A DNA stretch of 64,000 nucleotides from an uncultured delta proteobacterium. GTDB taxonomy: Bacteria; Desulfobacterota; Zymogenia; Zymogenales; Zymogenaceae. Positions 4,974-46,787 of this stretch are shown here, piece by piece (position 1 is the stretch's first letter; the number at the start of each line of letters is the position of its first letter). Where the stretch lies: the NCBI GenBank assembly GCA_963792965.1, contig CAWBYW010000016.1, positions 115,925 to 179,924 on the forward strand, written 5' to 3'. The notes under the pieces were generated by a model that was given only the letters and a program-made list of their open reading frames with translations, was not told where the DNA came from and searched no databases. Position numbers and translations under genes: made by a program.

Positions 4974-7162
4974 TTACCCCACCGACTTCCTCACCCTCCC
5001 CGACAGCTCCCGCGCCTTAGCCATGATGTCGGCCGCATCCGCCTTCGTTAGCTTGCCGTCGTGCACCAGCACGTCCCCGTTGACCAGCACGTCCCGCACG
5101 TCGGTGGATTTTGCGGCGTAGACGAGGTGCGAATAGGGGTTGTAGACAGGCGTCAGGTGGGGCTTATTGAAATCGACGATGATGAGGTCGGCCTTCTTGC
5201 CGACGGCGAGCGTCCCCACCAGCTCACCGAGCCCGAGGGCTCGCGCGCCGTTTTTTGTGGCGGTCTGGAGGACGGTCTTTGCCTCCATGTGCGTCGGGTC
5301 CGCATCGTAGACCTTGTGGAGCTTTGCCAGCGTATCCATCTCCCCGAAGAGGTCAAGGTCGTTGTTGCTGGCGCATCCGTCCGTGCCCAGCCCCACGACG
5401 ATCCCCCGCCCAAGGTACTTGTGCACCGGCGCCCATCCCGAGGCGAGCTTCATGTTGCTCTCGGGGTTGGTGACGACGGTAACATTCCTTTCACGCATGA
5501 TCTCCATCTCGGCATCATCCACCCAGACGGCGTGGAGCGCCGTGAATCTCTCGTTGAGGACGCCCAGGTCGTCCAGATACTCAAACGAGCTCTTGCCGTG
5601 CTTCTTCTTCACGTCCTCGATGTTTGCACGGGACTCCGCCACGTGGACGATGCAGCGCACCCCAAACCCGTCCGAAATCTCCTTTGCCCGCACGAAGAGC
5701 TCCGGCGAGCAGGTGTCCAGCGCGTGGGGCTGGATGGAGGGAACGATAAGGGGGTCGCTCTGCCACTTCTTGATGAAGTTTTCCGTATACTCGAATCCCT
5801 TCTCGATGGGCCCGTAGTTCGGGGAGGGAAAGTCATAGAGCACCTCGCCGAGCACCCCCCGCATCCCCATCTCTTTGGCGGCTCTCGCCGCCGAGTCCTC
5901 GAAGAGGTACATGTCACAAAAGGTCGTCACCCCCCCGAGCAGCATCTCCGCGCAGGCGAGCTTCGTCCCCCAGTAGACGAAGTCGTCGTCGAGGTTGGCC
6001 TTCTCGGCCGGAAAGATATAGTCGCATAGCCACCGCTCCAGCGGCAGGTCGTCGGCGATCCCCCGAAAGAGGCTCATGGCCGCATGCGTGTGCCCGTTGA
6101 CCAACCCCGGCATCACGACGCATCCCGTCGCGTCAATCTCGGTTCTTGCCGCCCAGCGACGGGCGGCATCGCTCCGTTTCCCCACGAAAGCGATCGCGTC
6201 GCCTACGACCACGACCGCGCCGTCTTCAATCGGGACCCCGTCCTCCATCGTCAGGACGATCCCGCCCGAAATAACTACGTCCGCGCCGATTCTCTCCGTC
6301 ATTCCTCTTTTGTTTCTCCTATCCGCCGGATTACCGCGGCGATCAGTCTGATGAGGTCCGGACCGGTCCTCTTCTCCCGTGGCGATGATATCGTCGATCA
6401 GGATGGGAGCCATGGCGTCGGGGAGGTTAACGTTGGCCACGAGCGAAAAGCCCAACACCCGCATCCTCACGTGCGCCGCGGTGATCACCTCCATAACCGT
6501 CGACATGCCCAGGGCGTCGGCACCGAGGCCGCGAAACATCCTGGTCTCGGCCGCCGTCTCGAGGCTCGGGCCCAAGACCCCGATATAGACCCCCCGGTTG
6601 ACGTGGATGCCCAGCCTGAGCGCCTCCTCTTCGGCGATCTCGATGAGCTCCCGATCATAGGCCTTCGTCATGTCGGGAAAGCGGGGGCCCAACGTGTCGA
6701 GATTGGGGCCGACGAGCGGGTTACGGCCCGTGAAGTTGATCTGGTCGTGGATAACCATGATCTCCCCCGGCCGAAAGAGCGGATTGAGGCCGCCGGCCGA
6801 ATTGGTGATGATGAGGGTGTTGATCCCAAGGGCGAAGAGGGCCCGGACGGCAAAGGCGATCTCGGGGGCCGTATACCCCTCGTAGAGGTGGAACCGGCCC
6901 TCCATGGCCGCCGTCTCCACCCCGGCGATCCTCCCGATATGCAAAATCCCCGCATGACCCTCCGCGGTCGAGACGGGGAAGTGGGGGATCTCCCCATACG
7001 GGATCGAAACCTCCGTCTCCATGACCGCGGAAGTACCGGAAAGTCCCGTGCCGAGGATCACGGCCACGCGCGGACGGAGGTTTGTCTTGATGAGGATGTG
7101 ATCGGCCGCCTCGTGGATCTCTTTGATCGCTTTGTCTGCATCGCGGGGGGGCTGGACTGTCA
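4974..7162 (-). CDS. PNP-family nucleoside phosphorylase (MTA/MTI phosphorylase-like) fused in frame to an MtaD-like deaminase
   Basis: Residues about 37-300 carry PNP family-1 motifs (ILGTGLSG, GHAGILHIG, GMSTVMEV). Residues about 325-765 are an amidohydrolase with VNGHTHAAMS. The likely start is the ATG at 7162 (MTVQPP...), preceded by GGAGGGAG. An internal ATG at 6301 is preceded by AGGAG. The linker between the two domains is Arg-rich and low in complexity. Confidence 0.7.
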
Positions 7163-7313
7163 TGGTATGACTCCCTCCACTGAGATAGACCGCTGGACCG
7201 GACGGACACAAACGGTCCGTCTGCGGCGCACGGGTGAGTGGCATACGGTCAGCCGGGCCGCATGAGCACACGGCCCATCGCGTCCGCGCGGCGCACCGTG
7301 CCCGAAAGTATCT

Positions 7314-24543: not shown

Positions 24544-24988
24544 CTAAGAAGGGGGCTGATTCACCAGCAGCCAGTAGAGCCCGAGGTTGCTCATCGCCTG
24601 AAAGAACTGGTCGAAATCGACCGGTTTGACCACGTAGCTGTTGGCGCCGAGGGCGTAGGCCTCCTTGATGTCCGGGTCTTCCCGCGAGGAGCTCACGACG
24701 ACGACGGGGATGCTTTTCGTCCGCTCGATGCCCTTGATCACCCGCAGAACCTCAAGACCGTTCATCTTGGGGAGCTTCAGGTCAAGGAGCACCACCTTGG
24801 GAAGCTTCATCGTCTTTCTTTCCGCGTATTCCCCCTGGGCCAGGAGGATATCCAGCGCCTGCGCCCCGTCCTGCGCAACATAGATCTGGTTTGCCAGATG
24901 GTTTTTCTTGAGTGCCCTGACCGTCAGCTCGGCATCATTGGGATTATCCTCCACCAGGAGGATGTCTAATCGGTTCGATGTTGCTCAT
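24544..24988 (-). CDS. single-domain response regulator (CheY-like receiver), one frameshift near 24973
   Basis: Receiver motifs [28 protein letters not shown]. The true start is MSNIE at the ATG 24988, which overlaps the stop of kinase 2 (ATGA). Reaching the receiver frame needs a 1-bp correction. Confidence 0.7.
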
Positions 24989-27508
24989 GAAGTCCCCCCT
25001 TCATTGAGTAGGGCAAAGTAAAACGCGGCGCCTTTTTCCACTTCTCCTTCGGCCCAGACCCGCCCGCCGTGGCGGTGGATCACCCGCTGGACGATAGCGA
25101 GGCCGACGCCGGTGCCCGGAAATTCCCGCTCGCCGTGGAGCCGCTGAAAAACCCCGAAGAGCTTGTCCGAATAGCGCATGTCAAAGCCGGCGCCGTTGTC
25201 CCTGACGGAGTAGATCGCCTCGCCGTTCTGTATTTCTCCGTTTACCTCGATTACCGCCCGCTCTTTCTTGGACGAAAACTTAACCGCGTTCGATATGAGG
25301 TTCACCCACACCTGCCGAATCATCGTCGGGTCTCCCTCGAAGCGCGGCAATTTCCCCACCCGAAAGTCGATGCGTCCGCGGCCTTCCTCGTTCGTCAGCT
25401 CGAAAAAGACGGAGCGCGCCAGAATCCCCATATCGATCGGGGCGGCCTGCATCTCGACGCGCCCGATGCGCGAGAACGCCAGCAGATCGTCGATGAGCCT
25501 GCCCATTTTGTTCGTGTTATCGCGGATGATCGCGCTCAGGCGCCTTCCCTCCTCGTCCAGAGACGCCTCGTGCTCCTCGAGAAGGACCTTGGTGAACCCG
25601 TCGATGGCGCGCAGCGGGGCGCGCAGGTCGTGCGACACCGAGTAGCTGAAGGCCTCGAGCTCCTTGTTGGAGGCCTCCAGCTGCGCCGTGCGGTCGCGCA
25701 CGCGCTGTTCCAGCTCCTTGTTGAGCGTCTGAATTTCTTCCTCCGCCCGCCTGCGGTCGGTGATATCGAGCGCCGAAGACAGCGCACCCGTCACCTTTCC
25801 GCTTTCGTCTTTGAGCACACGGCACCACCAACCGAGCAGTCGACTTTGGCCGTCACTGCGCCGCTGCCAGCTCTCGACGTAGAAAACGTTTTCAACACCG
25901 TCAAAGAGTGGCTGCACCACGGTCATAGGTTTCCTGCTCACCGACGAAGTAACCGGCCGCTTCTTTCCCGATTACGTCCTCCCCGAAGAACTCGAGGCCC
26001 GCCTGATTGGCCCAGGTATAGACCTTGTTGTTGTCCACCTCCATGATGATGTCGCTAACGGCGTCCAGGATGGCCTCCTGGCGATTAGACAACGCCCGCA
26101 AATTCTCCTCGGCGCGTTTTTTTTCGGTGATGTCTCGTAGGACGGACCGGCTATAGAGGATTTTGCCCTTCGCGTCTCTCACCGCGCTGGTGCTGAGCAT
26201 GACGTCGATCGTCGTCCCGTCCTTTCGCAGTATCTTGAGCTCTTCGCCGTGCACCTCTCCCGTCTTCAGAAAGGTCGGGAACACCACCTTGCCGGGAACG
26301 TTCGGCGCTGTCCGGATGATATATTTCAAAGACGGGGCGGCCGATGATCTCGTCCTTCGTGTACCCCGCTTGCCCTGGCAAACGTCTCGTTGCAGCTTGA
26401 TGATTTTCGCCGTTTTTGCGTCCACCGATACGAACATGTCGGGGGCGTTTTCGTAGAGGTCCTCGTATCGTGCCTCCGACTCCCTGAGCGCCTCTTCTGC
26501 CCGCTTGCGCTCCGTTACGTCCCTCCCGATTCCGTGGACTTCCTTGGCTCTCCCTTGTTCCCAAATGAGCCGCTCTCTTGTTTCGACCGTGTGGATAGCG
26601 CCGCCCTTACCGTGTAGTTTGACTTCAAACGGGCCGACATTTTCCCCGGCGAGTTGTCGTTTATATACACGCGTAATATCCTTATACGAGTCGGTTGTGA
26701 GGAGGCTCTTCGTATTGAGCCTGAGGAACTCTTCCCTCGAATATCCCAGTTTTGACGCGGCGGCGCTGTTGACGAACGTTATGTTTCCCTTATCGTCAAA
26801 GACATAGATAATGTCCTCGATATTTTCTACGATATTGCGGTAGCGCTCTTCGCTTTCCTCGATCCGGCGCAGCATCGGAGACGAGACCCGCAGGAAGAGA
26901 AAGGCGCCGACAAGCGCCAACAGGAGCGCAATGGAACCCGCGGTCAGGCCCGCCCGGACGAAGGGGGCTTTGACCTCCGCAAGGTCGATCTTGGCCACGA
27001 CGCCGAGGCCCAGCGCCTGCACCGGCTCGTAGGCCGCCAGCACCTTCTCCCCCCGGTAGTCGATGCCGACCATCGTCCCGGAAAGCCCCGAGAGGGCGCG
27101 TCGCATTGGCTCGGCCACGGGGGAATCGAGTGGGAGGATCGTCGGCGCCTGGGCCTTCTCGGCGAATCTTCCTGCGAACAGGAAGACCATCGAGTCTCCC
27201 TCGCGACGGGCGACGACGACCTCCCCGCTCACTGTTTCGGGATGATAATGGATGTGAGACTCAAGGAGCTCCCGGAGCTTTGCGTCGTCTATTTTTTTGA
27301 CTCGACTCCCGGCCACTATTCCATTTGCGCGGGTGATCTCCTCAAAGTGCAACGCCTGGCTCCGCGCGATCTCTGACAGGCGCTGCTTCTGCTCCTCGAT
27401 AGCCGCCCGGTAGAGCATGCTGATCGTGACGCCGAGGACGACGAGAATAATCGCGGTCATGATGAGGATGAGGATGGCGATTCTTCTTCCGCTCTCTTCA
27501 CGGTCCAA
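24985..27508 (-). pseudogene. membrane-anchored PAS sensor histidine kinase 2, with at least 4 frameshifts as assembled
   Basis: ORF 25901-27508 has a TM helix, a periplasmic sensor region, a second TM helix and PAS domains. ORF 24985-25941 carries HisKA (SHDLRAPL) and HATPase_c. A PAS domain between 26290 and 26380 switches frame three times (KTAKIIK / CNETFAR / QAGYTKDEIIGRPVFEIYHPDS / KVVFPTFLKTGEV). There is a further break near 25930. Confidence 0.7.
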
Positions 27509-27969
27509 GACCTCGCTGTTTATCTTTTAGAATGCAGAGTGAACACGAATCCGCCGCCCACGTCTTGTCGGGATCTTTGAGAACAAACCAATACGTTAGT
27601 TAGTGCCGTGAATTGAGACTACCCTCCGAGAGCATGCCGTGCCGTCTCCGAGCACGGATTTCACCGCGTAAAGTCAGTTCGACCGATGGCCCGCCGCGAG
27701 AGGTCGCTGTGGAAGTTGAATAGTAAGACGGTACTGATAGTCGCCACGAATGTGAGCTGATGGAGGGAGCGGTAACATACAACGTGCCCCGGTCTCTCTT
27801 GATTAACCAATAACGATTCTTATGATATTATCCGCCGTTTTATTTGATTATGCAAACAGTATTTTGGATATCCTTTCACTATCATATCAGATTAGTATAC
27901 GCATGCCCGTTTTTGCGCTTCATGCTCGGATAAGAAACGGCCATTCATGCGCCTTCCTTCTCTCCCCAA

Positions 27970-34580: not shown

Positions 34581-35605
34581 TCCGTATGCACGCCTCCGAA
34601 ATAGACGCGGAAAACCTCCCGGGCCACCGGCGCGGCATCCTCACCCCCCCGGCCGTGGTAGAGGAAGACGACCACGGCGATCTCGGGGTTCTCGGCGGGG
34701 GCAAAACCCAAGAACCAGGCGTGAGTCGCCCAGCTGGAGCCGAGGAACTCGCCGGTGCCGGTTTTGCCCATAATCTCGTGCCCGTCCGGCGTCCCCTTGA
34801 CGGCGGTTCCGTACGCCGCCGCATCGCGCATTCCCTCGGCGAGGATCGGCGCCGCGCGGGAAACCTCTACCTTCCTGTTGAGTCTCGGCGAAAATGAACC
34901 GATATCGTCTGCGGTGGGGGTCACGCGGGGAACCCAGATACTGCCCCCGTTCACGAGGGCCGAAAGATTCACGATCACCTGAAGGGGCGTCGCCGTGACG
35001 TTGTCGGTGTCTCCGATGACATACTCACGGGCAAACGCCGGCTCGGGGGGGATGAGCCTTCCCGCCTCCTCCTGTGGAAGGTTGACCCCGGTCTTTTCTC
35101 CAAACCCGAGCTCGGAAAGCCCCCGGTAGGTGGTGTCGGCGCCCAGCGTCTCGGCAAGGGAAAGGAAATAGAGATTACACGAGTAGGCGATCCCGCGGAC
35201 AAGGTTGAGATCACCGTGTCCGGGGGGGTACCAGCAATCGTATTTCGTTCCCGATATAACGGCACTCCCGGTACACCTGAAGCGAGCGTCGGGAGAGATA
35301 CGCTTCTCTTCGATCCCTTTCCAGACGCTCACAAGCTTGACGAGCGAGCCGGGGGGAAAGGCCCAGCGTGTCGCCATGTCGGGCCCCACCATCGCTCTGA
35401 TGCGTCCCGTCTTCACGTCCATGACGACGACCGCCCCGGTCCGGCCCGCCAGGGCGTCGGATGCCGCGCTTTCGAGGAGGGCGTCGCCTTTCAACACCTG
35501 TTCCGGGCCCGGCCTGCAACCCGAGGCGAAGAGAAATAAAAGGGCGACCCCCCCGATGAGGGGTCGCCGAAAGAGTAAACGAATCCGCCGCCGGATCCCC
35601 GTCAT
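34577..35605 (-). CDS. penicillin-binding protein, transpeptidase domain only (lipoprotein)
   Basis: SxxK (SLVK), SxN (SCN) and KTG (KTGT) motifs. Lipobox LFASGC. ATGA overlap with the upstream macroglobulin gene. Confidence 0.75.
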   Translation of the reverse strand: MTGIRRRIRLLFRRPLIGGVALLFLFASGCRPGPEQVLKGDALLESAASDALAGRTGAVVVMDVKTGRIRAMVGPDMATRWAFPPGSLVKLVSVWKGIEEKRISPDARFRCTGSAVISGTKYDCWYPPGHGDLNLVRGIAYSCNLYFLSLAETLGADTTYRGLSELGFGEKTGVNLPQEEAGRLIPPEPAFAREYVIGDTDNVTATPLQVIVNLSALVNGGSIWVPRVTPTADDIGSFSPRLNRKVEVSRAAPILAEGMRDAAAYGTAVKGTPDGHEIMGKTGTGEFLGSSWATHAWFLGFAPAENPEIAVVVFLYHGRGGEDAAPVAREVFRVYFGGVHTD

Positions 35606-38600
35606 TTCCCCTCGGTGATGACAAGGCTTGAGCTTCCCGTCCTTCCGAAGCGGTCCGGGAAGTACATCAGGTACGCCTCGGCCGGCATGACACCGTAGGT
35701 CCCCGGGTTTTGGGCGCGGAGGATATACTTGAAGACATAGGTCCCCACGTCGACGTAGTCCATCGATAGAGCGATCCGCTCATCCCGGAATTCCCTTCCG
35801 GCAAACCACCAGTCCGCATCGCCGGTATAGAGATCGTCCCCGGAGATGACATAGTTTTTATCGTCGCTGATGGCCTCATAGCCCGCCGGGTAGTAGTCCT
35901 CCAGCAGGAAGTATTGGGCCTTCTTGTCGGTCGTGACCGAAAGCTCCACGAGGATCTCGTCCCCGCTACTGACCGGGCCGCTGAGCGGCACCTTCGCGTA
36001 GATGAGCTCTCCCTTCTTGGGCACCTTCTTGAGGAGGTAGTACTTTCTGCTCACGGCAAATCCGGCGTTCAGCGGGGCTATCGAGGGGGCCGCGCTGTAG
36101 TGCGTGAAGGTCGAGGAATAGTAGAGGCTACCCGGCCCGTCCTTCTTGATGACGATCGTATTGGGGCCGGTCTTGAGATCCCCTTCCTTGACGGTAATCG
36201 TTCCCCCCTCGGTGAGCATCGTCTCCTTGGTGATGTGGCTCTTCTTGAGCTGTTTGCCGTTGAGGGTAAGCGTCATGGTGTAGTTCGGCTTGATCTCCCC
36301 GGTCCGGGTGATGTAGTCCGTCAGGGCATAGATGATCTTCCCCGTGGCCTTGGTGGAGCGCCAGTAGCTTCCGGTCCGGTTGATGATAAGCCAGCGGATC
36401 GTCTTGGGGATGAGGGGATTATTGACGTCGCGCATGGCCATCACCCGCAAAACGTACGCGGTGGTCTCCAGGGGATCGGCCTCCCAGTCCCACCAATAGA
36501 AGTCCTCTCCGACGTAACCCCAGTGAACATAGCCGTTCTCCTGGATCTTTTCCTTCATGAGCAGGTCATACAGGACGTTGGCCTTCTCCCGGATCCCCTC
36601 GTTCTCGTAGGCCAACAGCAGCATCGCCTGAGAAATGGGGGTGAGCTTGTCGCGCTTCTCGAACATCTCGTCGAGCCACGCGGTCTTGAGCTTGTCCGTG
36701 TAGGACAAGACGTAGAGGGCGTAGACCTTGACGGAGTCCTGATCGATCTTGCTCAGCTGAGAGATGAGGGACGCGGTGCCGCGCTTGATGACGCCCTCGT
36801 CCACGGTGATGGGAATGCCTGCCTCGGGAAGGAGGCGTTTCGCTTCGAGGAGCCCGTACAACACGTAGGCGGTCATGTAGGGATCGGTCTCGTCGAACTC
36901 GTACCACCCCCAGCCGTTATCGTCGTGCTGCCGTTTGTAGAGCACCATGAGCCCGCTCTTGATGTAGGCGGGGAGGTCCTTCTCTACGCTCTTATCGGAA
37001 AGGTCAAGCTTCTTTAATACCGACGCGACCATGACTGATGGCAAGAACCTTGCCATTACCTGCTCGTTTCACCCATAGGGGTAGCCGACGAGGAATGGTA
37101 TAGCGGCAAGCATTGTGTTGACGAGCGATGGACTGGTGGTAATGGTGAGCTCAGCAGCGTTCTTTATCGTGTTGGCGGGCTTGTTGACCGTCACCGTGAG
37201 CGTCCCGGAGTCCTTGATGATCTCTCCCATATCGTTCTTTGTCTCTTTGATGCCGAGCGGGAGGATCGGCACCTTTATCTCCATTCCGTCGGAGACCTCG
37301 TTGGTCATCGCCTTTGCCGTGAGAACGGCACTTCCCACGAGGTCCGCCCTGACGTGCCAGTCGACGCGCTTCTCTCCGTTTTTCGGGACGATTGCATCGA
37401 CCGGAACGCCGGAAGCGAGCGTCAATCCCTTTGCGTCGAACGTGAAGTGCACCTTCTTGTCGGTCGACAGGTAATTATGGGCGATGGTGGAGATTACGAG
37501 GTCGTCCCCCTGGCGCAGAAATCGCGGCGCCTCTATGCGGACGAGTAAGTCCTTGCGCTCGATGACCCGGTAGGTAGTCTCCCCCATGCTGTCGCCCGTG
37601 GTCACCCCCCGGACCGTCGCACGCCAACGCGTCAGGTTGTCCGGGAAGGTGACGGTGACCGTGGCCATACCCTTTGCGTTGGTCGTGATCGTGGGCGACC
37701 AGTACATCGTGTCCTTGAAGTCCTTTCGGATCAGCGGTTGAACGAGCGTGTCTCCCTTGAAGTCGGCAAGCTTCGTCTCTTTTTCCGGAAGTCCCGCCAG
37801 GAGTCCTTTCCGGTGAGAGTATCCGTAAAAGCGGAAGTAGAGGGATGACGACGTGTCCACGGAATGATAGCGCAGCGAGTAGAAATACTTCTGGATTTCG
37901 TCGACAAGCTCCGGTGAGATGGCGTAGATGGCGTCGTCCACGACGCCGAGCGACACCTCTGCCGACACGGGTTTGCCTGTGCTGTCCGTCGTCTTTATCG
38001 TAAAGGTGCCCTTTTCTTGCGGCTCGTACGTCGCCTTATTGGAGGTCACCTCGACGTTGATGAACTTTTCGGTCGGTGGGATGATGATGTTCTTGCTGTC
38101 CGAATAGAGCTCATCGTTGAAGATCGCGGCAACCGAGAGGTAGATGTTGGGGGTGTATCTCTCCTTTATGGGGAGATCCAGCATCGCCGTGCCACCCGTG
38201 GCTTTGATGACTCGGCTATCAAGGATCGAGTCTCCCTCGGTGGTAATCAACAGATAGGTATCCTTCACCGGCGCGGCGATCAGGATGTGGGCGGTATCGC
38301 CCACCGCGTAGGTATCCTTGTCGGGGATAATCGTGACGCCGCCCTCCGACGTCCCGCCGTAGGCATACCCCTCCGTAAAGGAATACGATGAGTCCTTGGC
38401 CGTGGTGGAGTTGCCCGCGTTATCGAAGACCGTGGCGATGAAATTGACGTCGCCCACGTTTTTCACCGTATATTCGATGACGGCGTCCCCACCGGAGTTC
38501 GTCCTTCCCGAAAGGGTGGCCGAGCTCGTGACCTTGCCCCCCTGCCAGTCGGTCTCCGTGACGATGAGCGTCACCGGCACATTCGCCACACCCTTGTTGT

Positions 38601-40242
38601 CAAAGTCGGAGACGTTGACCGTGATCCGCGCCTTATCCCCCGGCGCGTAGACCCAGCGGTCGGGACGTAGCGAAACGGTGTAGTTTGACCGAACGACCTT
38701 GACGACGCTGCTGGTGGTAACCACCCGGCGCGAGAGATCGGTAACGTTGGCCTCGATGGTGAAGGTATAGTCGTTGTCGGGCGACTCAAGGTATTGCGAC
38801 GTGTCTACCGTGAGCCTGAGCTTCCCGGCGTTGTCGAGCATAGCCGTGCCACTGTCCACCATGACCTTCTCGGTGGCGGTCCAGTAGTCTTCGTCCATGA
38901 AGTACCAGCCCCAGTCGTACCCCCACCACCAGGGGCGCTCGTAGACCGACCGGTAGACCGTATAGTCCACCTTGGCCTCCGTTACGGGGCTGCCGAAGTA
39001 GTAGCCCGCCTCGATATCGGCCGTGATCGTGTCGCCCCGGATGTAGACGTTCTTATCCGTCCTGATCTTGACCTCGTATTCGGGCTTCTTGTACTCCTCC
39101 ACCTTGAAGCTGTTGTAGTAGTTCTGTCCATTCAGTCCCACGACGATCTGATATTCGCCGAGCGAGGGCTCCTCTCCGAGGGTGAAGTCCCCCGAGAGGC
39201 TCCCGTACTTATTAATCTTATAGTTGTTCCGGAAGACCTCGTCGCCCTTGGCGTCGTCGATGATGACCAGGTAGTCGTCGCCGGTGTCGGGAACCTTCAG
39301 CCCCGAGTCGGTGGCGTTTCTCAGGATCGAGCGAAAATGCACCGTGTCGCCGGGACGGTAGACGGGTCGGTCGGTGTAGGTGTAGACCTTGTCGCTTGCT
39401 TCCCCTTCCCCGTAGGCATAGGGGTCGGCCAGGGTGAAGTTCTCGCCGTCCTGGGCGAAGACATAGATGACGTCACTCTCGGTCGCTTTCACCTTGGAGT
39501 AGTAGATCCCGTCGGAGTCCGTCTTCCCCTTGAAGAGGAGTTTTTTCTGGTTGTCGTAGACCGATACCTTAACGCCTTTCATCGGTTTGCCGGTTACCCG
39601 GTCGGCCACGTAGATAAGGCTGTCGGTGCTCGAGTTCTTCACGACAAACGACATGGGGGTAACGACGACCATCGTATAGGCCACCGAATCCTCAAAGACC
39701 GCCTCGACGAGGTAGCACCCCGGTTTCGGGACTTTGACGTCTATGTTGTGGTACTCCCACTGTCCACTGCCCGAGATGACCAACTTCTCCTGCCAGCGGT
39801 TGAGGAGCTTGAACTGGGTCAGGATCGGGAAGAGCTCGTAGGTCTGTGGCGCGGGTGAGACGGGCTCCTGGGCGTGCGGCAGGCCGAGTGCCGAGACGAC
39901 ATCGTCTCGGATGTTGTCGGAGAGTTTTGAGCGATAGTCGTCCCGGAAGAGTTCTACCCCCTTCCGTTTGATCGCCCCAACCATCTCGGCGGGGGCCGAT
40001 GTCCCCCGTTTCGTCGTCACCACCGGCGAGTGGACGTCATCGAGCCCGAGGAAGTACGATTTCGGATCGTCTACCCGGTAGAGCCGGATATCGAGGGACG
40101 GGACATCCATGGAGGAAACGGTGACGGTGACGGGCTCCCCCGGAGCGAAGATCTTGTCCGTGGAGAGCTCAAAGGAGCCTGCGAGCGTCACGGCCGGCAG
40201 TGTTAAGAGCAATACGATCGAAAGAATAAGGGACTTTTTCAT
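35602..40242 (-). CDS. alpha-2-macroglobulin family thioester-type protein (1547 codons) with an in-frame TGA at the thioester cysteine codon (37069-37071)
   Basis: ORFs 37069-40254 and 35602-37056 are in the same frame, separated only by TGA. The context GYPYG-[TGA]-NEQVMARFLPSVMVASVL aligns with PYG-C-GEQNMVLFAPNIYVL of macroglobulins. Downstream motif DDNGWGWYEF...TAYVLYGLLEA matches the thioester domain. Signal peptide present. Start ATG at 40242 is preceded by GAGGGA. Confidence 0.8.
37038..37056 (-). promoter_or_regulatory. stem-loop 12 nt downstream of the in-frame UGA (candidate bacterial SECIS)
   Basis: mRNA reads UGA AAC GAG CAG GUA then AUGGCAAG-GUU-CUUGCCAU, a perfect 8-bp stem with a GUU apical loop. 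The loop begins 20 nt after the UGA. Confidence 0.35.
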
Positions 40243-40485: not shown

Positions 40486-41583
40486 TTAGTTCAGTATCTT
40501 GAACCGATAATAACCCAAAAAATGGTCGTTCTCTCTTACCGGCCGCCAGCGCTCGTCCGGATGCACTTTGAGCGTGGCGAGCCTGACCTTCCTCACGTCC
40601 CCGTTATCGTGGGAGCGCGGGCCGGTGTGATAGACGAGCCAATCTTCGTTTACGTCCGAATCGCTCTCCTTTCCCCACTCGCCGAGGTAGATCATCATAT
40701 GGGAGGGCATCCGGGGGTTTTCCGGGTTGAAGAAAAAGAGGAGATCACCGGGAAGAATACCCTTCTCGGTTCGCCCGAGGAACACGACGTTGTACTGAAG
40801 CAGCGCCTCGGCCGATGCCGCCGCAGAAAAGTTGACGCCGATATCGGAAGGGACAAACGGCCCCGGCGCCGTCCGAAAGACATCGACTCCCAGCAGCGGC
40901 ACGTGGGGATAGGTGTACTTCTTCACGTCGGGATTTGCGGGGCTGACCAGCGTCGCGTAGGAGGAAAAGAAAGCGTCGTCGTGGCGCTTGAGCGCCTCGA
41001 CATAGGCAAAACGCACAAGCCCCGCACAGTCCCGGTTGATCTGGTCCCAGTGGCGGTTCTTCTCGTAGACTTGAGATTCCGCGATGGCGCAGAGCCACCG
41101 CCGGAAGTTGAGGCGGTCTGTGTCGCCGAAGAGCTCCACCACATCGGGAAACCCGTCCCCGTCCCGGTCACGCATGTCGGGGATAACATTCACCTGTGCC
41201 CGGGCAGGCGCCACCCCCGGAGACTCGGCCCGGATCGTGAGGTCACCCGTCTCGAAGGTCGAGATGAGCGTGAGGGAGGCCGTTCCGCGGACAAACGCGA
41301 GCGGTCCTGTTTCCACCCTTGTCGTCGCCGGGCCGACAAGCGTCACCGTAAGGGGTGCGCCGCAGCCGCGCGCAACATTCCCCCTGTCGGTCTTTGCAAG
41401 GATCGTGATCTCCACGGTATCTTCCTTGTTGGCCCAGAGCGTCTGCTTTGACACGGCGATCTCGATGCTTTTGGCCTTTGCGCACGACGTGATCAAACAG
41501 GCCAACAGGAGCGTCGAAAGGATCGCCGCTCCGCCTTTAATCCAGGTCCTTGACCCTGATCTTAAACCCGCCTTGAATTGCAT
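40486..41583 (-). CDS. DUF1175 (YfaT)-like lipoprotein with papain/NlpC-P60-like Cys-His core
   Basis: Lipoprotein signal (LLLACLITSC). DCAGLVRFAY resembles the NlpC/P60 catalytic Cys context and HMMIYLGEWG the His context. Immediately upstream of the macroglobulin gene, as yfaT is in yfaS loci. Confidence 0.5.
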   Translation of the reverse strand: MQFKAGLRSGSRTWIKGGAAILSTLLLACLITSCAKAKSIEIAVSKQTLWANKEDTVEITILAKTDRGNVARGCGAPLTVTLVGPATTRVETGPLAFVRGTASLTLISTFETGDLTIRAESPGVAPARAQVNVIPDMRDRDGDGFPDVVELFGDTDRLNFRRWLCAIAESQVYEKNRHWDQINRDCAGLVRFAYVEALKRHDDAFFSSYATLVSPANPDVKKYTYPHVPLLGVDVFRTAPGPFVPSDIGVNFSAAASAEALLQYNVVFLGRTEKGILPGDLLFFFNPENPRMPSHMMIYLGEWGKESDSDVNEDWLVYHTGPRSHDNGDVRKVRLATLKVHPDERWRPVRENDHFLGYYRFKILN

Positions 41584-43280
41584 CACCGCTGAAGTTGACC
41601 CCCCCGTAGCATGAGACAAAAGATCTTCTGGTCAGTTCCACGAGCGGCACGAGCCGCTTTTCCGAATCCTGGTAGAGAAAGTATTTATAGTTTGCCGAGA
41701 TGTTGACGAGATAACCCTCGATCAACGACATGGCGTTGTTCCCGTCTACGTAGAGATAGAGGTCGTAGGCGTCTTTCGGCATGTCTTTTTGCGCCGAGAT
41801 GAACGCGGGCGACTTCACGAGAAAATCGCGGTCAAAAAGGCCGCCCGCCCCCGTCATCGAGGAAATAACAGAGAGGTCGTTGAGCTGCTCCATCGTCGAA
41901 AGGTCCCAGAAGAGGAAGAGCCTGTCATCCTTGAGCGCAAAACCAGGATTAGGCTTGACGGAGGCGACGTACGACGTCCCGTTCCAATCGAGGCTCTTTT
42001 CCCTGAACTGGCCCATATAGGAGATGTGAGCGGCGTCAAGCTCGAGGGGAGACGGGCCCGCATCTGAAGAATGAATAGCTGTAGAGCTTGCCGATATTGG
42101 TGGAAAGGGCCTCTTCTTTGCCCGGTGCCACCCCAACGGAGGCGATCGTCCTGAGGTACGGTTTTTCTCCCTCATACCCGATCCCGACGAGGGCCGCCAG
42201 CGCCCCCCTGCCGAGGTTGTTGATGATTCCACCCTCCAGGTCGAATCCGCCCTTGTCCTTCCATTTTTTCAGGATCGAGATGTAGTTTACCTTTTGGGCG
42301 ATGTCGGTAAACCAGACCTTCCCGAAATGGGTATAAAGGATGCCGGGGTCGAAGGCCCGAAACGCCACGAGCGCCGCCGTCTCGCCGGGCATCGCCGATA
42401 GGTCTATTGTCGCCTTATCGGAGAGCGACCCCAGCCCCGCCAGGAGGCTTTTCCCCTCGCCCCCGGTGTAGGGGGCAAAGAGCGTGATATCCGCGCCGGC
42501 CTCGGAAAAGGTGACCGAGAAAAGGAGCGCGTCCGTCCCCTTGAGAAGCCGTCTGGCATGGGCGACGATGCCCATCTCGGAGTCATCGGGGCTCATCGCC
42601 TTCGTTGAATAGAAAAGGATATGGTAGTCCTTTGGCAGGTGGGAGAGCCGATCCATGACGGCGGGGTTTCCGGAGAGGTTCTTTGGGTTTTGCCCCGTAA
42701 CGATGTCCCACTCGGATTTGAAGAGATCGGGGGAGTCGGAGACGATCGTATAGCCTTTGACGTTCTTGTAATAGATCTTCTTGTCTGTGCTCGCGACAAC
42801 CCAGACGGAATAGGAGCCCCAGTTTTCCTTCGTCACGTGGCTCGAAAAGATCGAAAAGAGGTTGATGAGAAAACCCTTAAACCAGCCCGTCTCAAGCAGC
42901 GCCGCCGAGGCCTCCTTTCCCTCGAGGGTCGTCCGATAGAAGACGGCCCGCGCACCTATGACCCACAGGAAGCGTTTCAGGGTCGGGCGAATCCCGGTCA
43001 TCTTCTCGATAGTCCCGAGCCTGGAGAGCATCGGGGCCGAGAGGTCGCTCTTGATCGGGCCCTCAAAGAGCGAAAGATCGCCGACTTCATCAAAATAATC
43101 GCTTGAGAGCAACGGCCTCAATCCTGCCCTGAGGTCCCTGAGGTAGACGAAGGAGTCTACGTTCTCCGGGATGATCTGATAGAGCTCGTAGGCGTCTCCG
43201 GCCACGGCACTAAGGGCCCCAAGCGAAAGGGCCGCGATAACGACCGCGCCGATCAGACATGCCCTGATCTTAGATCTCAT
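41537..43280 (-). CDS. large secreted protein, DUF2138 (YfaA)-like, one frameshift near 42045
   Basis: ORF 42036-43322 has a signal peptide and about 410 aa of real sequence. It continues in ORF 41537-42232 in another frame. Removing one C from a C4 run restores ...KLYSYSFFRCGPVSLELDAAHISYMGQF. Family call rests on size and locus context only. Confidence 0.4.
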
Positions 43281-43299
43281 GAATCCCTCCTTTTCTCCG

Positions 43300-43890
43300 C
43301 TATCGGCCGATGGGGCCCGCAAATGACTCGGGATCGGCCCCCGCCCGGAGGATCGTATTGTAGTACCTCAGCGTGACGATGTGAATCACCCGCTCGCGCA
43401 TAGTATCGGGGGTCGCCTTCATGAGAGCGGGGAGGTCCTTGTAGAAATCCTTCAGCGACTCGTTCACGTCGCTCTTCATCTCGGGCGTCGGCGCGCCGGC
43501 ACGACCGAGGCCCGGAGGTTCTTGTATTCGTCCCACTCGGCGTCAAGGATGACGTCCAGCGCGTCTCCCACGGCACCTGTGTCCGTCCCGCCGGGCTGGC
43601 TGTAGTCCGTACCCGACGGCGTCTCGGAGACCGTGGGAGGCACAAGCATCCTGGTCCCGGGCGGCGGCGATCATCTCCCACTCGTGGCGAGGGACGTCCG
43701 GATCTCGCTTTTGCGGCTTGGGATAGCCCGCCTTGATCTGATCGATCGCAAGGGTAACGTCGGCAAAGACCCCCCCGACCTTCGGACCCTTCTCTCCGGG
43801 CGCGGGCGCCTTTTTTTCGCAGGCCCACGAGAAGATCAAGAGAAACGAGAGGAGCCCAAGAATCGGCCAGAGCAGTCCCGGTCGGGCGCT
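43300..43890 (-). pseudogene. small lipoprotein-like hypothetical gene with two frameshifts and no canonical start
   Basis: Signal-like RKRRDGLSARPGLLWPILGLLSFLLIFSWAC. The frame begins directly after the upstream TGA. The body switches frames near 43620 and 43510 (...ARDQD / LVPPTVSETPSGTDYS...DEYKNLRASVVPA / TPEMKSDVNESLKDFYK...). Confidence 0.3.
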
Positions 43891-43911: not shown

Positions 43912-44779
43912 TCAGGATCGGCCGAGCGCCGAGAGGATCTCGGCCAGCGCCCGATCCGAGCGATACGTATTGGTCTTGATGTTCCATCCCTTCTCCTTCA
44001 AACCGATTAAGAGCTGGGTAACCTCGGGCAGAAACGGCCTCACGCCGTCGAGCGCCGCCCGGTCGGAAAAGAGTTCTTCCGGGGTGCTGTCTAGTTTGAT
44101 CTTCCCCTTCTCGATAACGACGATCCGGTCGGCCACCCGGATGATTTCTTCCATGTCATGGGAGATGATGATGACGGTCTTGTTCTTGGCGTTGAGGGCC
44201 TTGATGTGCCGGATGGTCTCGGTCCTCGACTGGGGATCAAGTCCCTGGGTGGGCTCGTCGAATATGAGTATGGGAGGATCCATAGCGAGGATCGAGGCGA
44301 TGGCGACCTTGCGCTGCTCACCGCCGGAAAGGGTGAACGGCGAGCGCGTCCTGAGCCGGTCGATGTCAAGGTTGACGAGGCCTGCCGCATCACGACACTC
44401 GCCTTTCGACCTCCTCTTTCGAAAAACCCCCTCGGTTGACGAGGGAAAACGCGATCTCTTTCTCGACCGTCTCCTCAAAGAGCTGGTGCTCGGGATACTG
44501 AAAGACGAGCCCTACCATTTCCCGCAGCCTGCCGGTCTTCTTGGTGGCGGGCGTCAGGTCAAAATCACCGACGCGGACGCTCCCCTTCGCGGGCGTCAGC
44601 AGTCCGTTGAGGTGCAGCGCCAGCGTCGTCTTCCCCGAGCCGGTGCGCCCGATCAGCGCGACGAACTGGCCCTCCTCGATCGAGAGGTTCACCCCCGAGA
44701 GCGCCTCCTTTTCCAGCGGCGTATTGGGGAAAAAGACATGCGAGAGGTCTTTTATCTCGATGAGCGGTGCGGTCGTCAT
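43912..44779 (-). CDS. ABC ATPase of the EcfA/CbiO type, one frameshift near 44420
   Basis: N-terminal half (44390-44779) has Walker A GRTGSGKTTL. C-terminal half (43912-44478) has LSGGEQRKVAIASILAMDPPILIFDEPTQGLD. The two halves are in different frames. No EcfT partner gene is adjacent. Confidence 0.65.
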
Positions 44780-45033
44780 GAGACTTTGTAGACCATGTCG
44801 CCCGGCCGAACCCTGTCTTTGATCTTGATCCCCACGAGTGCGCCTGACGCGACCTCGGTTACCGGGGCGTTGTCGATCTGCATCGACTCCACCACTTCCG
44901 TGAAATCGGTCGTCGCACCCTTGAAGCGGAGCTCGTCCCCAACCTTGAGGGAGCCCTCGACCTTTATGGCGGCAACCGACGGCTTGGCAAAGAACTTGAT
45001 GACCTCTCCGATTTTTACCTCACTTGACATCAC
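44776..45033 (-). CDS. small (85 aa) EF-Tu/SelB domain II-like beta-barrel protein
   Basis: IGEVIKFF...VAAIKVEGSLKVGDELRFKG...ASGALVGIKIKDRVRPGDMVYKV resembles domain II of translational GTPases. ATGA overlap with the ATPase gene. Immediately downstream of selA, where selB normally sits. Confidence 0.5.
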   Translation of the reverse strand: MMSSEVKIGEVIKFFAKPSVAAIKVEGSLKVGDELRFKGATTDFTEVVESMQIDNAPVTEVASGALVGIKIKDRVRPGDMVYKVS

Positions 45034-45072
45034 ACTCCTCCTCCCGTGGTAGTCAGCATGATCTATCCTTAT

Positions 45073-46500
45073 TCATTCCCTTCTCATGGCCGACAGGATT
45101 CCGTTTGCGAGGTCCGTGACCTCCCTCTCCAGGACGGTTCGAGGATCGATGACGAGGCTCTCGTCCGAGATTCGTGCGATAATGGTCGGATGCTTGCGTC
45201 CTCAAGCGTCTCTCGAGCGCCTCGGGGCTCTCGGCCAGCGGAGCAATCGTTACCACCCTTGTCGGGATCTGTGCGGTGGGAAATGCCCCGCCGCCCACTC
45301 CCGAGAAGTCATCGGCGGTCGTGACGTGGAACTTCGGATGGGGCGTGGCCGCCAGCAGCTTCACGATCCTTTTGGCCCTTTTCTTCGTCTCGTCATAGGA
45401 CATCGTAATCATCGCCAGGACCGGGATCTTTTTTCGCGCATCAAACGGGTCCCGATAAATCATCAGGGTCGATTCGACGGCGGCAAGCGACAGCTTATCG
45501 ATCCTCACGGCCCGCGCCAGTGGGTTCTTTTTAATGCGGTCCGATCGGGTCCGCCTCCCCTACGATGAACCCCGCCTGGGCACCGCCCAACAGCTTATCG
45601 CCCGAAAAACGTAATGACATCGACGCCCGATTTAATCACTTCCGAGACGGTCGGCTCATGGGGGAGGCCCCAGGGCCCGAGATCCATGAGCGAGCCGCTG
45701 CCGAGGTCCTCCATGACCGGGATGTCATATTTTTTCCCGAGCCCGACGAGCTCGGCGGTCGACACTTCCTCGGTGAACCCGACGATCCGGTAATTGGAGG
45801 TGTGGACCTTGAGGAGGAGCGCGTCTGGCCGACCCGATGGCGCTCTCGTAGTCCGAAAGCCCTCGTCCGGTTCGTCGTGCCGACCTCTCTGAGGCGCGCG
45901 CCGCTCTTTTCCATGACATCCGGGATACTAAAAGCGCCGCCGATCTCCACCAGCTCTCCCCGTGAGACGATGACGTCCCTGCCGTCGGCAAGAGTATTGA
46001 GCGCAAGCAACACGGCCGCGGCGTTGTTGTTGACCGCAAGGCCCGCCTCCGCGGAGGTGATATGGGCGATCAGGTCGGAAACGTGGTCGTGGCGGGATCC
46101 CCGCTCTCCGCGCTCGACGTTGAATTCGAGATTGGAATAGCCCGAGGCGATGCGTACGATATGCTCGAGGGCCTCCGCGGCGAGGGGCGCGCGGCCGAGG
46201 TTTGTATGCAAGATAATCCCCGTGGCGTTGATGACGGGCGCAAGCTGACGGCGTGACCGATTTGATCAGCCACTGCTCGATGAGCGACAAGAGCTCCGGC
46301 TCCGAGACTTCGGCGGGATGCTCTTTGGACATGAGCTCTTTTCGCGCGGACAAAATGGCGCCTCTCACCGCCTCCTTTACCACCATCCTCGGAAAGCGCC
46401 TCGATAGTTCCGTGACCATGGGGTGAGCCAGCAGCTTATCCACCGCGGGGAGTTTGGCGAGAGGGGATTTTTGTGCCGGGTTTTCCGACTTTCTTGGCAT
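45073..46500 (-). pseudogene. selA: L-seryl-tRNA(Sec) selenium transferase (selenocysteine synthase) SelA, with at least 6 frameshifts as assembled
   Basis: Pieces match SelA along its whole length across frames. N-terminal [34 protein letters not shown]...[11 protein letters not shown]...[11 protein letters not shown]...[35 protein letters not shown]. Then [20 protein letters not shown]...ITF / [16 protein letters not shown] / RIDKLSLAAVESTLMIY. C-terminal PTIIARISDESLVIDPRTVLE...SAMRRE*. Breaks are near 46245, 45880, 45845, 45625, 45575 and 45185. Confidence 0.8.
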
Positions 46501-46787
46501 GGCGCCGCTCGAGATTTTTTCCATCTATACCATACTTTGACGGATTTCTCAAGGAAAATAAGGCTCTATGGGCGACGAACCTGACCCTCCCGCGCGGTTC
46601 TCAGTTCGGAAATGGAGATTTTGACCCTCAGGCGAGCGAAGGGCTCGGGGGGCCGAGCCCCGCCAAGACAAACGATTCCGCCGCTCATTATCTGACGGTA
46701 AAGGTAACTGAAGTCAGCTCCGCTCCACCCGAATCGGAGCCGTTCATGCGCAGGTCGTAGCTTCCGGGGGTCGTCGGGCCACAAGGC

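Follow-up and report, generated by a model that had tools for sequence, protein, structure and literature searches.

A selA-headed gene block with a likely selenocysteine-containing alpha-2-macroglobulin in a relative of Candidatus Zymogenaceae

We analyzed a 64,000-nucleotide stretch of DNA (the window; positions 115,925 to 179,924 of the forward strand of contig CAWBYW010000016.1, assembly GCA_963792965.1) from an uncultured delta proteobacterium, whose lineage is deltaproteobacterial and lies near Candidatus Zymogenaceae. The analysis centers on selA, a gene of the selenocysteine (Sec) machinery, on a small beta-barrel gene directly behind it, and on a macroglobulin gene further downstream that carries an in-frame UGA codon. 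All three belong to a block on one strand that comprises, in this order, selA, a gene for an 84-amino-acid (aa) barrel protein, an ECF-type ATPase gene, a lipoprotein gene, a gene for a secreted protein of ~585 aa, a MagC gene, the alpha-2-macroglobulin gene and a penicillin-binding transpeptidase gene. An earlier reading made from the letters of the DNA alone (the sequence-only reading) had placed selA just upstream of the macroglobulin gene; the shared strand holds, with 4.8 kb and five genes in between. The block is kept in relatives whose 84-aa proteins are as little as 62% identical, and the genes upstream of selA vary between genomes. The features on which the argument turns are listed here, and related loci in other assemblies are referred to by L numbers.

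45069-46524, minus strand: selA (L-seryl-tRNA(Sec) selenium transferase), 482 codons after removal of 7 extra bases; spread over 3 frames as assembled
44776-45030, minus strand: gene for an 84-aa stand-alone beta-barrel protein, intact, with ATG start and AGGAGG upstream; NCBI name 'translation elongation factor-like protein'
35602-40242, minus strand: bacterial alpha-2-macroglobulin gene, one frame with a single in-frame TGA
37069-37071, minus strand: TGA at the thioester cysteine codon, GYPYG-U-NEQ, in the context ...LVGYPYG-TGA-NEQVMARFLPS
37038-37056, minus strand: hairpin resembling a selenocysteine insertion sequence (SECIS), AUGGCAAG-GUU-CUUGCCAU, 12 nt past the UGA, with G24 and U25 in the loop

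The TGA of the macroglobulin gene is followed by ~480 conserved codons in the same frame, and relatives L002 and L003 have TGT (Cys) at the same codon (GYPYG-C-NEQ). A pattern scan for TGA-type macroglobulins across 185,579 species genomes yielded eight matches. Two of these were chance matches, as expected, and the other six were genuine macroglobulin genes that carry this TGA; the contigs carrying it include both SPAdes- and MEGAHIT-style ones. Loci L099 and L100, the latter on a contig with a MEGAHIT-style name (k141), contain the complete cluster, with selA uninterrupted at 482 aa and the UGA present in the macroglobulin gene. The clade of L097 and L098, only 40% identical, reads GYPYG-TGA-VEQ. 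UGA at the thioester codon thus recurs in at least eight other assemblies and in two clades (sequences of this type were noted in the window, L004, L009, L012-L016 and L097-L100), the UGA-type genes showing 68-76% DNA identity to the window gene. Public gene calls split the gene in two, as reflected by the many 'genes' of 476-486 aa in the protein collection that begin just past the UGA position. An altered genetic code was rejected, because TGA serves as the ordinary stop of the neighbouring genes. In the domains of its product (MG2, A2M_BRD, A2M, TED and bMG10), and in its linkage to a MagC gene upstream and a penicillin-binding transpeptidase gene downstream, the gene resembles the known bacterial alpha-2-macroglobulins with a CxEQ thioester, such as the pbpC-linked YfhM/ECAM of E. 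coli, and the mag operon of Pseudomonas aeruginosa (MagC, MagD). The window gene differs from these known macroglobulins in that its thioester cysteine codon is UGA with a SECIS-like hairpin behind it, and in that its cluster is headed by selA. A full-text literature search found no report of a Sec-containing macroglobulin.

The RNA segment that follows the UGA is under constraint of its own. A stem of 7-8 bp at +16 with GU in the loop is present in two clades, the hairpin of the distant clade, AUGGGCA-AGUUUC-UGCCCAU, occupying the same position and likewise having G24 and U25. As MAFFT aligned both hairpin types gap-free, column covariation could not be counted, and we describe the structure as a register-shifted hairpin. 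In seven divergent UGA-type genes, the 33 nt 3' of the UGA are invariant. None of the nine degenerate codons at +1 to +10 varies synonymously, whereas 17 of 19 flanking codons do (Fisher p = 5e-5). Cys-type genes encode a near-identical peptide with other codons, have Ser for Ala, and form no hairpin. This replacement concerns codon +6 after the UGA (37053-37051 in the window), where UGA-type genes read VMARFLPS and the Cys-type genes of L002 and L003 read VMSRFLPS. Synonymous recodings yield such a hairpin in 0.9% of cases for the window peptide, in 9.9% for the distant clade and in 0% for the Cys-type peptide; because no synonymous recoding forms the hairpin with Ser, the Ala/Ser difference tracks the Sec/Cys state. 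The SECIS of E. coli fdhF has an 11-nt spacer and the loop bases G23 and U24. The window hairpin is like it in lying at a near-equal distance (12 vs 11 nt) and in having GU in the apical loop, whereas its sequence differs, no Rfam model matches it, and its binding by SelB is putative.

Several results weigh against the insertion of Sec at this codon. The folding energy of the hairpin is not significant (z = -0.27 against dinucleotide shuffles, with 22% of synonymous recodings folding equally well), so the SECIS argument rests on geometry together with synonymous-site conservation. Rfam, run at gathering thresholds, gave no match in the window and no SECIS family. Of the Sec machinery, only selA was seen within the 64 kb: ARAGORN detected no tRNA, hence no tRNA-Sec, either in the window or in 14 related loci, and SelB and SelD domains were found neither in the 50 open reading frames (ORFs) covering the coding part of the window nor in the fetched related loci. 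The search for selB, selD and tRNA-Sec that the sequence-only reading had proposed for the genome gave no hit in the window and related loci. In E. coli, selB lies directly after selA (selAB operon); this adjacency is not obligatory, and the lack of selB behind the window selA is therefore no anomaly. Finally, the block occurs with Cys-type as well as UGA-type macroglobulin genes, and in the distant UGA-type clade no selA lies within 10 kb, for which reason the linkage between selA and the macroglobulin gene may be historical rather than functional. The UGA might accordingly not specify Sec, with the gene either being naturally split or read through by a near-cognate tRNA, and selA being irrelevant to it. 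This alternative draws on the unremarkable hairpin energy, on the missing Rfam match, and on selB, selC and selD not being seen in the window and fetched loci. We nevertheless regard it as unlikely, given that in two clades the stop coincides exactly with the codon of the active-site Cys, with Cys orthologues in existence, and that synonymous sites directly 3' of it show no variation. Moreover, a GU-loop hairpin stands at an fdhF-like distance in both clades while being absent from Cys-type genes, and the unreassigned code leaves TGA as the normal stop of the genes nearby.

Turning to selA itself, Pfam reported Se-cys_synth_N and three SelA fragments in different frames of the minus strand (PF12390, PF03841). 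When the extra bases are removed, the repaired protein of 482 aa, similar in length to the intact orthologues of relatives (472-491 aa), matches the TIGR00474 equivalog over its full length with 592 bits (cut-off 267.9). The repaired protein keeps the motif FSGDKLLGG around the pyridoxal-phosphate (PLP)-binding lysine, which aligns with that of the orthologues. Given the TIGR00474 score, the N-terminal domain and the PLP-lysine motif, its homology to SelA is unambiguous, and its enzymatic conversion is predicted on this basis. The homology noticed in the sequence-only reading is thereby borne out, all peptide segments quoted there being present in the three-frame translation. SelA of E. coli and Aquifex aeolicus is alike in both domains, in the full-length match, in SGDKLLGG and in length. 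Compared with the E. coli selAB operon, the window selA has no selB behind it, heads a macroglobulin cluster, and is interrupted seven times as assembled. A scan for promoters and terminators around selA gave nothing above chance. The seven frame changes, of which the sequence-only reading had counted at least six, are all +1 events according to the order of the frames. Six of them were mapped base by base against L001, an independent contig of 1,296 bp from the public run ERR11596056 (blastn and global alignment). The remaining one, at 46245-46248, lies in a stretch that L001 does not contain and was placed by protein alignment with relatives only.

46245-46248 (approximate), minus strand: frame break 1, +1 type; ...SVTP/(Q)LAPVINATG matches ITPRLTPVINATG of relatives after removal of one base
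45858, minus strand: frame break 2, extra T (alignment with L001)
45825, minus strand: frame break 3, extra G and an adjacent substitution (alignment with L001)
45610, minus strand: frame break 4, extra G directly 5' of the FSGDKLLGG codons (alignment with L001)
45539, minus strand: frame break 5, extra C (alignment with L001)
45195, minus strand: frame break 6, extra A (alignment with L001)
45084, minus strand: frame break 7, extra A, 5 codons 5' of the true TAA stop at 45071-45069 (alignment with L001)

The contig L001, which was found via an exact-sequence look-up of the 84-aa protein, matches window positions 45917-44616 at 1280 of 1302 positions (98%). The sole gaps in this alignment are six single bases within selA that the window has in excess of L001, where the last 280 codons of the gene are read without interruption up to ...SAMEGNE-TAA. 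The sequence-only reading had placed all frameshift sites at G/C runs. This was wrong: the six mapped insertions are of T, G, G, C, A and A, and only three of them extend an existing run. Using proteins of intact relatives as probes, we detected further breaks in the neighbourhood: one in a Memo-like gene, two in an AAA_33 gene, one in the ATPase gene, two in the lipoprotein gene, one in the gene for the ~585-aa protein and at least one in a PMT_2 gene. Together with those in selA, this amounts to ~15 breaks in seven genes between 32,600 and 51,550, 13 of them of the +1 type, with the densest patch at 43.3-46.3 kb extending across three genes. In the related locus L004 (MFD05674.bin.2.3), the corresponding 16 kb contain ~11 breaks at different positions, one in selA and five in the macroglobulin gene. 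Public assemblies of other relatives (L002, L003, L005, L099 and L100) have every gene of the block intact, so that the comparison with selA of related genomes suggested by the sequence-only reading speaks for an undamaged gene. Natural gene decay produces mixed indels with a deletion bias, whereas seven of seven selA breaks are single-base insertions, which favours error. The breaks are thus very probably insertion errors of a noisy, probably long-read, consensus. Programmed frameshifting in selA was rejected, as the seven breaks have no common motif and neighbouring genes are broken alike. As a separate observation, L014 (MFD03899.bin.1.137) has one extra base ~55 nt past the macroglobulin UGA (CTTGAAG, vs CTGAAG in the 93%-identical L013), which breaks the frame and represents the same kind of insertion error in the same type of genome bin.

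The competing view, also raised in the sequence-only reading, is that this strain's selA is a genuine pseudogene undergoing decay, with real frameshifts, no Sec being made, and the macroglobulin UGA acting as a stop that records a lost trait. A number of observations point in this direction and away from a technical origin. The breaks are concentrated, with seven of the 15 in the 1.45 kb of selA (binomial ~1e-5) and none in the 4.6-kb macroglobulin gene; we tentatively attribute this clustering to a local stretch of low-quality consensus. Four of the selA substitutions relative to L001 are synonymous and six non-synonymous, which gives no clear sign of purifying selection, the numbers being too small for a ratio of non-synonymous to synonymous rates. 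No same-species full-length SelA was found in the protein collection, the best match being 73% identical, and the N-terminal break, outside the coverage of L001, consequently has protein-alignment support only. Last, the breaks were judged from assembled sequence. Even so, we consider decay quite unlikely. Each break is a single-base insertion, unlike the deletion-biased outcome of natural decay. Substitution divergence in selA (10 in 843 bp) is not above that of its intact neighbours (6 in 453 bp of the 84-aa gene and ATPase sequence), and the frame is intact in the 98%-identical strain. The ATPase, lipoprotein and further genes are broken in the same manner, and the macroglobulin frame and SECIS tract 3' of the UGA are perfectly preserved. 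Of the two branches that the sequence-only reading had laid out, the insertion signature and the intact contig hence support sequencing errors, and a dead selA is unlikely. On a practical level, a heavily frameshifted gene in a noisy metagenome-assembled genome need not be dead, and a loss of trait should not be called from it.

The small gene behind selA is present as described in the sequence-only reading, encoding 84 aa from its ATG; starting from a GTG three bases upstream gives the 85 aa reported earlier. An exact-sequence look-up matched the 84-aa form and returned no match for the 85-aa form. Its TGA stop overlaps the ATG of the ATPase gene at 44779-44776, consistent with the proposed ATGA coupling. 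The product matches Pfam GTP_EFTU_D2 with E = 2.4e-6 and 28.3 bits, just below the 30.3-bit cut-off; in its family, PF03144 (GTP_EFTU_D2) is matched by 43 of 47 members and PF16325 by two of 47, and NCBIfam has no model for the protein. A homologue search retrieved 342 close homologues, almost all of 83-87 aa. Identity of the window protein to the 120 homologues listed is 57-87%; it shares all 14 invariant columns of an alignment with 65% mean column identity, and has the conserved motifs KFFAKPSVAA, G.TTDF and RVR.GD. When 1.8 billion cluster representatives were searched with a profile, 1,851 matched at E <= 1e-10, most of them stand-alone. Some family members of 180-370 aa have two tandem barrels, or carry N-terminal extensions of 20-150 aa. 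Against sequences of the PDB, the profile found EF-1alpha and EF-Tu domain II at E ~1e-3, SelB at E = 0.08-0.9 and Pbp11 at E = 0.35. The AlphaFold model (pLDDT 87.4) is an eight-stranded barrel, for which Foldseek, with probability 1.00, placed the C-terminal domain of a U32 peptidase first (TM 0.87, root-mean-square deviation 0.9 Å over 79 residues), followed by IF2 (TM 0.75-0.84), EF-Tu domain II (~0.69) and Pbp11 (0.65-0.69); the 50 best structural matches did not include SelB. The resemblance to EF-Tu domain II pointed out by the sequence-only reading is therefore correct as far as the fold is concerned.

Seen against known proteins, the 84-aa protein has the same beta-barrel as domain II of translational GTPases (EF-Tu, EF-1alpha, IF2/eIF5B and SelB; PF03144; TM 0.69-0.84) but lacks the GTPase domain, domain III and the winged-helix domains of SelB, with SelB being among the weakest matches. 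The U32 peptidase domain from Geobacillus thermoleovorans (4he5, 4he6; PF16325) is the best structural match at only 22% identity, and forms the tail of an enzyme there, whereas the barrel is a separate gene in the window. Pbp11 is likewise a stand-alone barrel of ~90 aa with a translation-factor fold, but is archaeal and confined to Thermococcales; its sequence similarity to the window protein is marginal, and any homology between the two is putative. EF-Tu and IF2 use such barrels to bind the ends of aminoacyl-tRNAs. Pbp11 is a stand-alone tRNA-binding barrel as well (PMC9540759). By analogy with EF-Tu domain II, IF2-C2 and Pbp11, the 84-aa protein most likely binds a tRNA or RNA end. Being very widespread, uncharacterized and located beside ribosomal-protein genes, the family is a reasonable target for tRNA-binding work.

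The genomic surroundings of the family bear on whether the protein serves Sec synthesis. Among 85 family loci, ~30 have rpoA-rplQ upstream and 14 have an ECF ATPase gene as a direct neighbour, in some cases on either side of the barrel gene; selA precedes it in only six, all of them closest relatives. In the metagenome contigs L020-L022, L024, L027, L037 and L094, the barrel gene is either flanked by two ECF-type ATPase genes or immediately preceded by rplQ, recalling the gene order rpoA-rplQ-ecfA-ecfA'-ecfT of Firmicutes. A specific link of the 84-aa protein to selenocysteine is unlikely. In particular, a lineage-specific accessory of the Sec pathway, which might bind the acceptor end of Ser-/Sec-tRNA(Sec), appears very improbable: the order selA, barrel, ATPase is kept in relatives down to 62% identity, and the tRNA binding of same-fold barrels would suit such a role, but selA adjacency is restricted to the six loci, the partnership with the ECF-type ATPase gene and rplQ is tighter and wider, and no barrel gene lies near the distant UGA-type macroglobulin locus. 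That the gene is a selB domain II left over after deletion of the remainder, as the sequence-only reading had suggested from its fold and its position directly behind selA, where E. coli has selB, is scarcely credible for a large, mostly stand-alone family of constant length (83-87 aa) and high column identity that mostly follows rpoA-rplQ or lies beside ECF ATPase genes, and for which the SelB profile match (E = 0.08 at best) is far weaker than that of EF-1alpha or EF-Tu.

The remaining genes of the block and the region between pfkB and selA are as follows.

43912-44779, minus strand: ECF-type ABC ATPase gene, one +1 break near 44390-44400
43321-43878, minus strand: putative lipoprotein of ~190 aa, conserved in the cluster; two breaks, one of +1 and one of -1 type
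41540-43292, minus strand: conserved secreted protein of ~585 aa without family match; one +1 break near 42060
40489-41529, minus strand: MagC-family protein, intact (cluster comparison with relatives)
46691-46780, minus strand: last 30 codons of a gene for a secreted two-repeat protein (234 aa in relatives), between pfkB and selA

An intact orthologue of the ATPase scores 304 bits against TIGR04521 (ECF_ATPase_2; cut-off 330), and the cluster contains no EcfT-like gene. NCBIfam has no model for the lipoprotein, the ~585-aa protein or MagC. The remnant of the two-repeat protein gene directly follows pfkB; ~600 bp are missing, owing either to a real deletion or to the internal repeat having collapsed in assembly. 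The PfkB product had no match in an exact-sequence look-up. Elsewhere in the window, an in-frame TGA at 24985-24987 (minus strand) lies between a HisKA-HATPase ORF (24988-25971) and a receiver-domain ORF (24547-24984), the latter without obvious start. With its PAS part upstream in another frame (25904-27526), the arrangement suggests a single hybrid sensor kinase gene that a substitution and a frameshift have disrupted. At 4977-7313 (minus strand), a 779-aa ORF combines nucleoside phosphorylase (PNP_UDP_1) and amidohydrolase domains and could be either a fusion protein or the result of genes joined in assembly.

Considering the locus as a whole, we find it very likely that selA is normal and functional in the living cell, that its breaks are consensus errors, that the barrel gene is not a fragment of selB, and that the macroglobulin is very probably a Sec client. 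The sequence-only reading had held that, if the frameshifts were sequencing errors, Sec insertion in the macroglobulin would gain support. This half of its interpretation stands, in view of the UGA on the thioester Cys codon, the conserved SECIS-like hairpin and the recurrence in at least eight other assemblies, while its idea of a selB remnant does not. With an intact selA, Sec in the macroglobulin becomes credible. In the mechanism we propose, SelA would convert Ser-tRNA(Sec) to Sec-tRNA(Sec), and the macroglobulin would be one of its clients, with UGA in place of the thioester Cys codon followed by a hairpin that may act as a bacterial-type SECIS. The resulting Sec would be joined to the Gln of the U-N-E-Q motif by a selenoester bond in place of the usual thioester. 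It is likely that selA heads a conserved operon ending in a Sec-macroglobulin, a selenoester-armed protease trap that would represent an undescribed selenoprotein family in at least two clades of Deltaproteobacteria type, including relatives of Candidatus Zymogenaceae. We know of no natural selenoester protein. Selenoesters are much better acyl donors than thioesters, and complement C3 and alpha-2-macroglobulin belong to the same family of thioester-forming defence proteins. If true, the reactive Cys of a thioester defence protein would have been swapped for Sec, which would put selenium to a new biological use and provide a new tuning of the protease-trap mechanism.

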